From Balanoglossus misakiensis (taxonomy: Eukaryota; Animalia; Hemichordata), in NCBI GenBank assembly GCA_040954595.2, contig CM082589.2, positions 7,189,186-7,253,185 of the forward strand: a DNA stretch of 64,000 nt. The letters are read 5' to 3'. The position numbers and the translations under genes were made by a program. The notes beneath the pieces are model-generated. The model was given only the letters and a program-made list of their open reading frames with translations, was not told where the DNA came from and did not search any database. Below, one piece after another: positions 358-44,436 of this stretch (position 1 is the first letter of the stretch; each line of letters begins with the position of its first letter).

Positions 358-3300
358 GTATCTGGCCAGAGGAGAAGGATGTCGCCATGCTTAAAGGTCA
401 GGAAATACTTCAATAGATTTTACTTCATGCTAGGGAGTCAAAATCAAATTGTAATAATTGCATTGTGGGTATAAAGGTCGACGAACCACTGTAGTCTGCC
501 AGTCTGAGTAAGGGTTTGAAGGAATCACCTTAGAAGTAATTCATGACTTATCTCTTATACTTTACGAAATTCGTTCAAATTGTACACACTTTTTATTTTT
601 TGCTACAGACAATCAGTATGACCTAACATTAGTTTATATTCCGAACAGCAATTTATTAAAATTGACAAATATCCGCCATCTTGAAATTCTGTCGACCGCA
701 TGACTTTTTTCACTCACACAGCTAGCAAAATTTAAATAGTACCTCATTGCATTGAACGAAAATCACTTTGCAGGTAACGAATGTGCGCTACGTTGTTCGG
801 GAGCCATAACCCTGGGAAGTGTCAACAAGATCGAGGCAAAGCTGAAGTCACGTGGGCTTGAATATGGCATGCAACAGTGTCTCCTGTTTGTCAACGAACT
901 CATAGTTGAGCGGGAAAAGGTAAGTGAGCTTTCCTGTGTTCAACAACCCTGGGGCAGTCCCCAAACGACTGTAGATTGTGCACATTGGTTAAATTCATGT
1001 ACTGATGTACTGTAAAACTGGTTATTTTCGCGAGCAATAAATTTCCGCGAGAGCCAAAAAATAAACCCGTGAAAATAAAAAGTCGCTTAAAATGTTTTTC
1101 GGAGATGACGATGCAGTTAGTGAAATACGAGAACGCGAAAATTAATCCTCGCGTAACAGTTGCCTCTTTCGATATCGCGAAAATTTCCTGTCGCGAAAAT
1201 AACCCGTTTTACAGTACATGTAGTATTATTAATGTAGAAATTTAGTCCGCTGTATGTCAATTAACACTTTTGTATCACATGCTCCCATGGTTGTCATAAT
1301 CATTGTACTGTATTTGTCCAAGTGCAGCCGTAATGTCCGCATTAATTGTTGTATTTGTTTTCGGTTTTCATCACGAAGGATATGGAGAAAGTTTTGATCA
1401 AAATATGCTGTGATGGTAGGATAGTCACTATTCGATCGGGAGATGATGACAACATAAAAGTCTTATACATCAGTCTGAATGAGAAGAGACAACCGTTCCT
1501 GGTGGAGGACGCCGAAGAGAAGTTAGAAGAAATTGGACGCAGACACTCAGAACACGTTGCCGGTAATTAAACACATTCCAACCAAATGTGCTGTATTTGA
1601 AAGCTTCTACAGAGAACCTATGAAAGTTTTTATCTCAATTATCGAGTACATGCATTCAAGTTCATTACCTGGGAAACACCAGCAACATCTTCGAACACCA
1701 GCATGGCTCATGGCAATGGATCAAACGGAAAACGGGCGATGTCACTTGCATTGGAGGGACCCAACGTTCTTTTTTGGGTGAATGAAGTAGGAATTTTGAG
1801 AACTTTGAGTTGTATATAGTATGTTTTTTTTTGCGTTCTTGCTGCAGAGATGGAAAGGCTCGACTCTCGTGAGATAGCTGGCGAATACGAAGACAATCAC
1901 TTGAATGGTCCCGGGAGAGTATATGACAATTGGAGCGTTTCCGATGGGAGCAGTTCGCAATCAAGTAAGAAAAAAATAATAGACTATTATTTTTTTTTCT
2001 TAATAGTATGAATATTAGTAATGGCGCCTTAATTTTGTGAATAACTAATTACTGTAAAATCACTACAGTGATATGGTAAACCATCTTGCATCTTATCCGC
2101 GTTTGACCTTACTGTGCTATAACCACCTGTTCTATACATATGCCCATATTTGGAACAAATTGCATATCTAAGTCTGGCCGTGTGGCGAACTTTCTTGCGT
2201 GGTTGGCTGGTACCCTGCCTCGGTGACAAACACCAAAGAGGCAGGTAAACACAAACCGCCATCTTTAGAATTTTGGAATCTGATTGGCTAATAAATGAAC
2301 GTTCTATAACTTCCGGGCTACATTCAATCTGTCGCGTTTCTTGACATTCATTTTTAGTCTTCCCGAATATACATATTTTTAAAAAACCAACAATTTATGA
2401 TGGAAGTGAAGCTAAAATCAATACAACTACTGACACAAATGTTGGCTGGTATGCGCATTAGCCACTTCCGGGAAAGTGTCAAAAAACTAACACTTTTCAA
2501 AATGGCGGTCGGCGTTTATCTGCGTCTATCTTCTTGACGCGTCTTTTTGCCAAGTCACGTGAGACGCAGTGTTCAGCGAAGCTTGCGTGGCTACCCAAGT
2601 GAAAATCTATGACGGCCAGATCTCGTCTTTCCATGATGGTAACTGTGGCGAAATTTTTCAGATTCAGAATCTGATCAGATTCAGAATCTGATCGGAATCT
2701 GCGGCTAACTTTGTGGCAAGGTGACCTCATGTCTATAGAATCATATTGATTATATATCACAGTTTTTGGTGAGAGGAACGAAATTTATAACACAAAATGA
2801 CGGGTACTTTATTCTAACCATTGCCAGGTCGTGTGGATATTTCTTCTGATGAAGGTAATTACAGTGAAGAAGAAGATAAAAACAGTCCCGGTCCCAGCCC
2901 TGGTCCTGGTCCTGGTCCTGGTAATGATGATTCAGGCGACGGGAAAGGGTAAATCCGTTTAACTACACGCGTTTAATTCTGTGATTGCTAGTAAATAACG
3001 CAGATTTATTTTCCGGTATTTGTCGCTATATTGTAAATGTACTGAGAAGCAACATAGTTGAAAGCACACGCTTTAAGTGTATAGTATTATGTCTCATCGC
3101 CATTTCTATTTTGCTACTGTAGTTGCAATTGCGGTTCTGTTGAAGTGCGATATGGTATTAGAGGTAAGTTAGACAAGCCAATTCTAGAAAACGCTGTTAC
3201 ACGCATCTTGATGTTAGCAGATGTAAACCCTATTCGATTTTATTGAATTCAGTTTATCTAATGATGATTTGATTTGTCGATGACTGTAATTACGAGTCGA

Positions 3301-4153
3301 AAGGAAAATTGCTACGTCACGGGTGAATAATTGAAATTAGAGTGGCTGAGTATACATTGTAGTTGTGTATGCTGTTGGTCCTATGGTCTATTAGCAATCT
3401 GCAATAACTTTCACTTTACAGTTTGGAGATGTGCAAGATTGACTGGCGACTGCGTTCAAAGGTTGATTGACGCGGAAGAACAAGGAGACGAAAAAGAAAA
3501 ACTTACTCGCAGAGAACGGACGTGCCTGGAGTATTGTAGGCACATGGTGGGGGAACGGGTGAGGATGGCCGACGGTCGGGTAAGATTCCTGATATTCAAT
3601 CGAATGATGGAAATAATGCTTTCTTGGCATGTAGCACGAGCTAGTGGATGAGTGCAGTGTTTTTTTCCAATGAATTGTGTTGATAAATGTACATTATATC
3701 CTATTATGACTATAGTGAGATATACTTGAGTTATTTGGCGGGTCCGATATGTGATGTGCTGTATTGTTTTGTTTGTGGCGGTGCAACCGACCATGTAAAC
3801 GTGATAAACGTGACCCGTACCTTTTGGCATATGCACAGTTATGATTCCAACTATTCAGCAGTGGATAGATGTTAGCATTATTCTGCTTACAGGGGCTGAT
3901 CAATGTGGAAATACTCGTGAAAACTGCGGGTAGACGCTGGATGCTGATTGCAGGGCCGGGCACGAACAAGTACAAAGTAACATGGCGGAGGGACAGACAG
4001 CTAGCCTACCATGAAAACACTGCGAAGACGTTCAACCAGGCAGTCTTCGGAGCCGGCAAGTTTTTTGCTCCCATCTATCTGCACAAAGGAAGGAACAAAC
4101 GCGGTGCCAACCCTCGATTACGGGCAAAACATTCACAAACAGAGGGGTTTTGA
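358..4153 (+). CDS. Gene A (5'-truncated by window edge): uncharacterised repeat-module protein, two modules visible; closest paralog of gene B
   Basis: Phase-consistent AG/GT exons 358-396, 774-919 (GAITLGSVNKIEAKLK..QQCLLFVNELI), 1379-1562 (VLIKICCDGRIVTI..SLNEKRQP), 1848-1964, 2828-2948, 3123-3163, 3422-3579 (ERTCLEYCRHMV), 3893-4153 (INVEILV..GPGTNKYKV..stop). Exon 774-919 has the same 146-nt length as, and clear similarity to, gene B exon 11287-11432. Confidence 0.8.
1008..1216. mobile_element. ~210-bp TA-flanked MITE (non-autonomous DNA transposon) in a gene A intron
   Basis: Terminal inverted repeats TACTGTAAAACTGGTTATTTTCGCGA ... TCGCGAAAATAACCCGTTTTACAGTA; no coding capacity. Confidence 0.7.
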
Positions 4154-44000: not shown

Positions 44001-44436
44001 CAAGGCAGCCAAGTTATAAATCAAGCTGTGTATGAAACTAGAATAGTTGCAGCAACATCCATTTGCCAATATTTTCAGAATGACCCTCAACTTGACAAGT
44101 TGGAAGTAAATTGTATTTTATATATTTAAATGATAGGGAAAATGTCCGGACATTAAGGAGAACGTTCATTTGACAGTCGAATGTGACAAGTTCCACTTGG
44201 TATTGCGAGCGGGAAAAGGCTATAATATATGCAGAGTCTACATGGAAGGCTCGACGCCGAAGTACAAAGTTCAGCATTTACCCAAGTGGAGGAGAACTCT
44301 GGAAAAACTCTCCACTATCAAGGCCGACAAATTGTTGACAGACATTAGAGTAGGTCCCTTAAAGCTCAATTTGACGGGAGACACTACGACCGGTGAAGGT
44401 GAAGCTACTTCCGGCGAAGGAACCAACACCAACTAG
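38048..44436 (+). CDS. Gene F: putative N-myristoylated three-module protein, close paralog of gene E (~408 aa)
   Basis: Exons 38048-38072 (MGSGASQT), 38505-38632 (DIACMRYCYSIL), 39841-39924, 40645-40751, 41422-41501, 42532-42692 (ACLNYCIGFI), 42933-43104 (ILSNAMFNVACG..LNEKKEP), 43390-43559, 44137-44436 (AGKGYNICRV..DIRVGPL); exon-by-exon similarity to gene E. Confidence 0.85.
39300..39600. repeat. ~300-bp dispersed repeat; second copy at ~41760-42020
   Basis: Both copies read TTCTTTACTATCAATCACGTG..GACCCAC..GACGGGCAAGCAATATTTCGGC..TGACGTCATTTGATATC. Confidence 0.8.
40055..40468. repeat. TG/CT-rich low-complexity microsatellite
   Basis: Direct inspection. Confidence 0.9.
42150..42496. mobile_element. 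T2/Kolobok-type palindromic MITE, copy 4 (small deletion at right terminus)
   Basis: TTAAAGGGACAAAGTCTC...GAGAGAGACTTTAA. Confidence 0.85.
43640..43909. mobile_element. Second TTAA-flanked MITE family (~270 bp)
   Basis: ~30-bp TIRs TTAAATCGCGTAGCTCGTCTCACACGCATG / CATGCGCGTGAGACGAGCTACGCGCTTTAA. Confidence 0.75.

Follow-up and report, generated by a model that had tools for sequence, protein, structure and literature searches.

The 64,000-nucleotide stretch of DNA analysed here (hereafter the window) comes from the acorn worm Balanoglossus misakiensis (Hemichordata; assembly GCA_040954595.2, contig CM082589.2, forward-strand positions 7,189,186 to 7,253,185) and carries a cluster of six gene models, A to F, at positions 358-44436, which share a module of about 95 residues. 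The reading that we favour, with a probability of about one half, is that these are real acorn-worm genes, in which a new two-exon module is present in one to three copies, predicted to fold like separate beads on polar linkers, and that their products are likely myristoylated at Gly2 and likely act, on the inner side of cell membranes, as multivalent docking scaffolds without enzymatic activity.

The window is animal DNA with approx. 38% GC and abundant microsatellites. Gene models were assembled by hand from splice sites, and the canonical borders of all 51 introns are therefore given by construction and provide no independent test of the models. Genes A and B lie tail to tail on opposite strands and are followed by C, D, E and F. 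A preliminary description of this DNA, made from the sequence alone, had listed six spliced genes with 13 modules (2/3/1/1/3/3 from A to F); this count was reproduced, and all 14 motifs quoted there are present in the window. The gene cluster itself stands with three corrections: B is on the minus strand, A is incomplete at its 5' end, and the first module of F is modelled without its last two strands. Genes A to E are open throughout and free of stop codons. The features of the cluster are as follows:

358..4153, plus strand: gene A, 3' part, 307 amino acids visible, 5' end beyond the window; 7 exons (358-396, 774-919, 1379-1562, 2855-2948, 3123-3163, 3422-3579, 3893-4153); modules A1 774-919 + 1379-1562 and A2 3422-3579 + 3893-4153
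8027..14307, minus strand: gene B, 12 exons, 458 amino acids, start MGNNSS; modules B1 14128-13983 + 13403-13246, B2 11432-11287 + 10661-10484 and B3 8763-8579 + 8293-8027
17961..22508, plus strand: gene C, 17 exons, 298 amino acids, start MGCNSS (Gly2, Cys3, Ser6); one module, 18616-18734 + 19998-20122, its halves separated by two short linker exons
20306..22517, plus strand: charged tail of gene C, 12 tandem micro-exons in units of ~184 bp, each an intron plus a 42-nt phase-2 exon
25141..27663, plus strand: gene D, 5 exons, 160 amino acids, start MGLLSS, GC donor after exon 1, tail exons uncertain; one module, 25378-25574 + 26285-26433
30389..35276, plus strand: gene E, 8 exons, 405 amino acids, start MGSGAS, acidic tail; modules E1 30963-31087 + 31829-31986, E2 33466-33635 + 33761-33929 and E3 34439-34608 + 34962-35276
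38048..44436, plus strand: gene F, at least 8 exons, start MGSGAS; modules F1 38505-38632 + partial 39841-39924, F2 42532-42692 + 42933-43104 and F3 43390-43559 + 44137-44436
14274-14307, minus strand (B), and 17961-17994, 25141-25174, 30389-30410 and 38048-38072, plus strand: first coding exons with MGxxxS, 22-34 nt, phase 1

In each of the 13 copies, the module consists of a helix exon, entered in phase 1 and left in phase 0, and a strand exon entered in phase 0. This constant two-exon unit with its uniform phases indicates that the module family arose by cassette duplication. The motifs that had been taken as shared are less uniform than proposed. The cysteine motif C-x-x-[YF]-C is found in 9 of the 13 modules, while A1 and B2 retain only its first cysteine and E3 and F3 neither. 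The module end, given as [DN]xxGxP, is conserved in its D/N and its proline (D/N-x-x-x-x-P), and the glycine is optional.

Because the median pairwise identity among the window modules is merely 17%, their likeness was put to a statistical test. Profiles from which the tested module and its closest paralogues had been removed scored 18-44 bits in 14 of 14 tests, above all 200 shuffles (maximum 9.4); with half-module profiles, two of 12 tests did not exceed all shuffles. With a profile built from 52 modules of other species, the first 26 places among 2110 six-frame fragments all went to the 26 module exons, and the next fragment had an E-value of 0.43. In profile-profile comparison, the helix exons aligned with the first half of the outside module (probability 97.7) and the strand exons with the second half (98.4). 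Synonymous changes exceed non-synonymous ones in all six paralogue pairs, with a ratio of non-synonymous to synonymous rates (dN/dS) of 0.12-0.44 in five pairs and saturated dS in the sixth. A to F are old, maintained genes whose paralogues show purifying selection.

Scanning 1.84 billion proteins with a helix-exon profile in HMMER returned 13 matches, 10 of which were covered by the subsequent look-up. Nine of the 13 are true relatives, eight from Ptychodera flava and one from Glandiceps talaboti, and the look-up also added cluster mates. In RefSeq, all relatives are listed as 'uncharacterized', and they contain 1-10 modules and hardly anything more (P. flava XP_070554929, XP_070554928, XP_070555177, XP_070556388, XP_070556364, XP_070553409, XP_070554679, XP_070553413, XP_070552355 and XP_070576248; G. 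talaboti XP_077991465), which agrees with the variable module number proposed in the preliminary description. The lungfish match P0005 is a simple repeat and was dropped, as were P0010-P0012, repetitive proteins with matches of 15-21 residues that gave at most 11 bits per piece, or nothing, with the whole-module profile.

The two species belong to different families of Enteropneusta, and the module has so far been found only in acorn worms, in these two families, as far as the searches reach; to that extent the proposed lineage specificity is borne out. No relatives were found in phages, prokaryote genomes or metagenomes, and one viral contig that matched over 23 residues was rejected, since the module profile gave it 11 bits. 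Word-based searches came back empty in spite of the existing relatives, whether started from exon F8 or from the helix-exon alignment, and the same kind of search with the full-module alignment recovered six of nine known clusters and none new; this insensitive method does not establish absence from Saccoglossus, echinoderms or amphioxus.

Orthology with P. flava extends to the order of the modules. XP_070554929 matches gene E module for module (168 of 403 residues identical, 42%) and is gap-free across five of six aligned junctions, which provides independent support for the splicing of E; gene F, likewise matched module for module, is 38% identical to it. Residues 373-775 of XP_070555177 align with gene B at 23% identity with the module order kept. 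In XP_070555177, module 4 abuts module 3 without a linker at the point where gene B begins, and this model may therefore be two fused genes with a missed tiny MG exon. A module tree, built on few columns and with many open forks, places B1, B2 and B3 with modules 4, 5 and 6 of XP_070555177, A1 and A2 with B2, B3 and the last two modules of the same protein, E2/F2 and E3/F3 with modules 2 and 3 of XP_070554929, and C1, D1, E1 and F1, together with modules of XP_070556388 and XP_070554929, in a single starred group. The P. flava orthologues of A/B, C/D and E/F all lie on one 48.2-Mb contig, indicating that the cluster is older than the split of the two species. Other P. flava members, with 6-10 modules, are located on a second, 50.6-Mb contig and have no counterpart in the window; a 3-module member is on a third contig.

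The proposal that the domain is undescribed withstood the profile, Pfam, PDB-sequence and Foldseek checks. Pfam gave no match that explains the module (25 exons, 10 modules and, at E up to 10, nine whole proteins), and neither did sequence searches of the PDB; NCBIfam returned weak partial rows only, PADLOC two weak partial rows only, and Rfam no match. Two Pfam rows above cut-off in relatives, Rdx for P0001 and DUF6514 for P0003, are sums of weak pieces and were set aside. Literature searches showed no description of the module family and returned no paper for six of the relatives' accessions, passages of the P. flava genome paper do not mention the family, and the term 'myristoyl' was not found in passages of PMC11175523.

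For one P. flava module, AlphaFold2 predicts a compact structure (predicted local distance difference test score, pLDDT, 95.5; predicted template modelling score, pTM, 0.87), with strands at residues 2-6, 56-61, 66-70, 76-82 and 88-94 and helices at 13-25 and 32-47. The model of the three-module E/F orthologue repeats the same elements three times, with linkers of pLDDT below 50, disordered ends and a pTM of 0.31. This indicates that three divergent module classes share the predicted fold, as had been proposed, and that they have no fixed packing against each other. Foldseek gave no match among PDB or viral models at E up to 0.001. In a structure search against 48,161 representative chains none reached Z 5, the best being eRF1 (3.8), REDD1 (3.6) and THUMP (3.5), whereas unmatched models typically reach Z 7-8 in the same search. 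In eRF1 (N-terminal domain) and THUMP (8IPA, 4AF1, 2DIR), a helical pair plus strands superpose over 69-71 residues (Z 3.5-3.8, root-mean-square deviation, rmsd, 3.1-3.6), but the cover is partial, identity is 4-10% and the scores are typical of common arrangements; for RNA binding of the eRF1/THUMP kind, the basic third module would be the only support. A wide search that started from the model of three modules yielded mostly helix-pair matches, the best of which (Z 5.5 over 66 residues of a chain from a G-protein-coupled receptor complex) was judged a common arrangement. No match by features was found in the Atlas for two modules, and one Atlas row for a PepSY/BLIP-like structure (TM 0.53 over 59 residues, model pLDDT 0.43) fell below the bar for naming. 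No chain with a thioredoxin-like fold was among the matches listed in the structure searches. A weak or absent structural match does not prove a new fold. The domain family itself is new, the layout of a lipid-anchor motif followed by tandem modules is familiar, and the scaffold function is putative.

The lipid anchor is suggested by the N-termini. All five visible first exons (B to F) encode MGxxxS, and serine or threonine at position 6 is preferred in N-myristoylated proteins. A blind scan returned 39 candidate ATG mini-exons, four of which start with MG; all four read MGxxx[ST] and all four head genes of the family, against a background of 13 such starts among 2270 ATGs (0.6%). The E/F orthologue retains Gly2 and Ser6 within a different sequence. 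The proteins have no signal peptide, and their few hydrophobic peaks fall in module strands, which agrees with the cytoplasmic location proposed earlier. Myristate requires Gly2 and usually a second signal, according to PMC4972946. Candidates for such a signal are Cys3 in C and the last modules of A, B, E and F, with net charges of +3 to +10; B, D, E and F have no basic cluster beside Gly2. In a small Gly2/Ser6 first exon, an optional Cys3 and non-enzymatic interaction modules behind, the layout resembles that of myristoylated signalling adaptors, and we take the MGxxxS starts to be comparable to those of Src-family unique regions and of TRAM/TICAM2. The window proteins differ from such adaptors by containing no SH2, SH3, TIR or other known module, and the likeness is therefore one of layout only.

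What the module itself may do is suggested by its conservation, counted on 47 de-replicated modules. Modules make up 64-88% of 16 of 17 proteins and 44% of C, and uncovered stretches of at least 60 residues are polar-rich. Conservation is highest at core hydrophobics, Cys7/37/41, Gly62/72 and Pro88. Among polar positions, Asp34 (32/46), Asn76 (28/47), Asn55 (24/46) and Glu79 (24/46) come first, none of them invariant, and the net charge of the modules ranges from -9 to +10. With conserved core and turn residues, no invariant polar residue and variable charge, a non-enzymatic binding domain is the simplest reading. A fixed core would carry a variable surface for protein partners, tandem copies would provide avidity, and the number and type of modules would set both avidity and specificity. 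Myristate at Gly2 together with a second signal, putatively Cys3 in C and basic patches plus the basic third module in B, E and F, would hold the protein at the membrane, and the family would have grown as the two-exon cassette, and also entire genes, were duplicated. The pathway may be that of stress or defence signalling, a guess that we put forward tentatively.

Several observations weigh against this scaffold reading. An enzyme with a degenerate or shared site may be compatible with the same conservation pattern, and the three cysteines, which a plain scaffold does not require, are strongly kept (35/42, 37/46 and 40/46). The single-module prediction was made from a 10-row alignment, and its five models ranged from pLDDT 77 to 96. 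The blind scan missed the first exon of D. Among the 11 relatives, only XP_070554929 has an MGxxx[ST] start, while 10 have none; of these, at least three models begin inside a module, and the start of three large relatives lies immediately ahead of a module, pointing to a soluble subfamily. The MGxxxS start is thus common to the five visible first exons of the window, and the proposed lipid anchoring may be a trait of a subfamily and not of the family in general.

A broader version, which we regard as doubtful, takes the fold to be an acorn-worm invention with no solved relative. Membrane-anchored proteins with 1-3 modules and soluble ones with 5-10 would form a combinatorial set, recognise each other or diverse partners, and fill in enteropneusts the adaptor role that death-fold or TIR modules have elsewhere.

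The alternative that the module is a very diverged relative of REDD1/DDIT4 (RTP801_C, Scylla/Charybdis), multiplied in acorn worms into a membrane-tethered regulator of stress or growth signalling, is unlikely. The strand motifs of REDD1 may resemble those of the module. Among the weak structural matches, human REDD1 (3LQ9) covers most residues (Z 3.6-3.8, 83-84 of 96 residues, rmsd 4.2) and recurs for module 3 of the E/F orthologue (Z 3.4, 85 residues, rmsd 4.1). Two helices followed by a small sheet come in the same order in both, over 83-85 residues at 4.1-4.2 Å, but identity is only 10-12% at Z 3.4-3.8, and tandem units and a Gly2 start belong to the window family. PMC4183088 describes REDD1 as an alpha/beta sandwich with two layers and an unusual topology, able to reach the plasma membrane as well, and places its functional patch in EPCG plus KKK; EPCG occurs in none of 65 modules and KKK in three. 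Moreover, the Z-scores are far below the 7-8 of typical unmatched models and tied with those of eRF1 and THUMP, Foldseek gives E 2.5 and TM 0.37, PDB sequence searches list no REDD1 chain (3LQ9) at E up to 10, and no RTP801_C row appears in Pfam for the 25 exons, the 10 modules or, at E up to 10, the nine whole proteins.

The conserved cysteines raise the question of whether the module is a metal or redox unit, in which Cys7, Cys37 and Cys41 would hold Zn or Cu or close into a reversible disulfide; a string of such modules near a membrane would act as a buffer or sensor for metals, sulfide or oxidants. CxxxC is present in 53 of 65 modules; of 42 de-replicated modules, 33 have both Cys7 and Cys41 and four have neither, counts that are uncorrected for kinship. 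The summed Pfam Rdx score of the 10-module XP_070553409 (27 bits) exceeds the cut-off of 22.6, yet no single stretch passes, and the CxxC motif of Rdx occurs in merely seven of 65 modules, the module's own motif being CxxxC. Two further observations make this explanation improbable: there is no conserved fourth ligand (His15 21/64, Cys90 27/65), and the class with the highest conservation between species (E3/F3, 54-60%) has none of the three cysteines but the same predicted fold.

The preliminary description favoured a role in immunity or defence. A birth-and-death pattern is typical of immune families, and a dedicated system of innate-immune sensors, decoys or effectors that pathogens drive to diversify would fit the clusters on three P. 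flava contigs, the recent module and gene duplications, orthologues that are merely 38-42% identical and the module number of 1-10. Against this stand the absence of any immune domain in the 17 proteins (no TIR, death-fold, NACHT/NB-ARC or LRR in Pfam scans) and a dN/dS below 0.5 in all measurable pairs, although old pairs can mask episodic selection. The neighbouring genes encode a PCSK9 C-terminal domain and an ANF-receptor domain, and PADLOC contributes only the two weak partial rows. The proposed immune role thus fell back to an analogy, and a dedicated system of this kind has to be considered improbable as well.

A membrane skeleton would also be well served by long chains of repeats, by charged tails of low complexity and by a lipid-anchor motif; the proteins would then be structural components of a cell cortex, cilium, gamete or gland granule specific to acorn worms, with modules as spacers or lattice units. 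This is highly improbable, considering that no fixed packing between modules is predicted (pTM 0.31), that linkers vary widely and that C and D have a single module. Finally, the exons might be chance frames, remnants of pseudogenes or debris of transposons, and the one phase gap in F could be cited for this; the probability is negligible in view of the open frames over 5-17 exons, the synonymous excess, the collinear RefSeq orthologues and the independent profile test.

Some gene models leave alternatives. The frame of F is open on both sides of a single phase gap (39924 to 41422), and at this gap a 33-bp triplication (39905-39999, plus strand) repeats the donor site of F exon 3. The outside profile matches module F1 over positions 55-78 only. 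A frame near 40890-41010 (plus strand, within 40470-41420) resembles the absent last strands of F1; its splice sites are weak and the profile gave no match. Alternative readings exist for the last two exons of D and the fourth exon of B. The last modelled exon of D (27621-27679, plus strand) encodes a short Met-Gly-Cys-x-x-Cys, which is similar to an acylation signal, and has a strong donor after its stop; other readings are possible. In the tail units of C, the exons are 86% alike and the introns 96%, and every splice site is intact; insertions of 15 and 6 nt leave the frame undisturbed in two of the exons, and the stop is in the last exon.

Repeats are found within and around the cluster. 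In gene B, a 238-bp duplication (99%; 9051-9288 and 9682-9919, minus strand) repeats the acceptor together with the beginning of a linker micro-exon, and is a possible alternative or decoy exon. Two introns of F share a 300-bp repeat (39299-39601 and 41759-42024; 78%). A near-palindromic element of 350 bp, probably a miniature inverted-repeat transposable element, occurs five times with 78-89% likeness (13433-13790, 23811-24159, 32382-32741, 42150-42494 and 62015-62354), and a 362-bp tandem array lies near the window end (62791-63824). The neighbour at 46389-47885 (minus strand) encodes PCSK9 C-terminal domains (PF18459, E 1.9e-11; PF18463, E 2.2e-05) and is unrelated to the cluster; the other, at 60093-62574 (plus strand), covers the beginning of a receptor gene; it has an ANF_receptor domain (E 1e-15) and motifs that are presumably GABA-B-like.

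The analysis defines an unnamed domain family that covers at least 11 'uncharacterized' acorn-worm proteins in addition to the six window genes. Its known range is narrow, its fold is possibly unmatched and its mechanism is one that we infer; new stable folds are rare in animals, and here a confident model stays at unusually low scores with all representative solved structures (Z 3.8 at best). Should the link to REDD1 be true, a fold reported as unique would have given rise, for the first time, to a tandem and lipid-anchored branch. The small soluble members (D and single modules) ease both structure determination and the search for partners, and the clean two-exon unit makes the history of duplication directly readable in a group that is central to deuterostome evolution.

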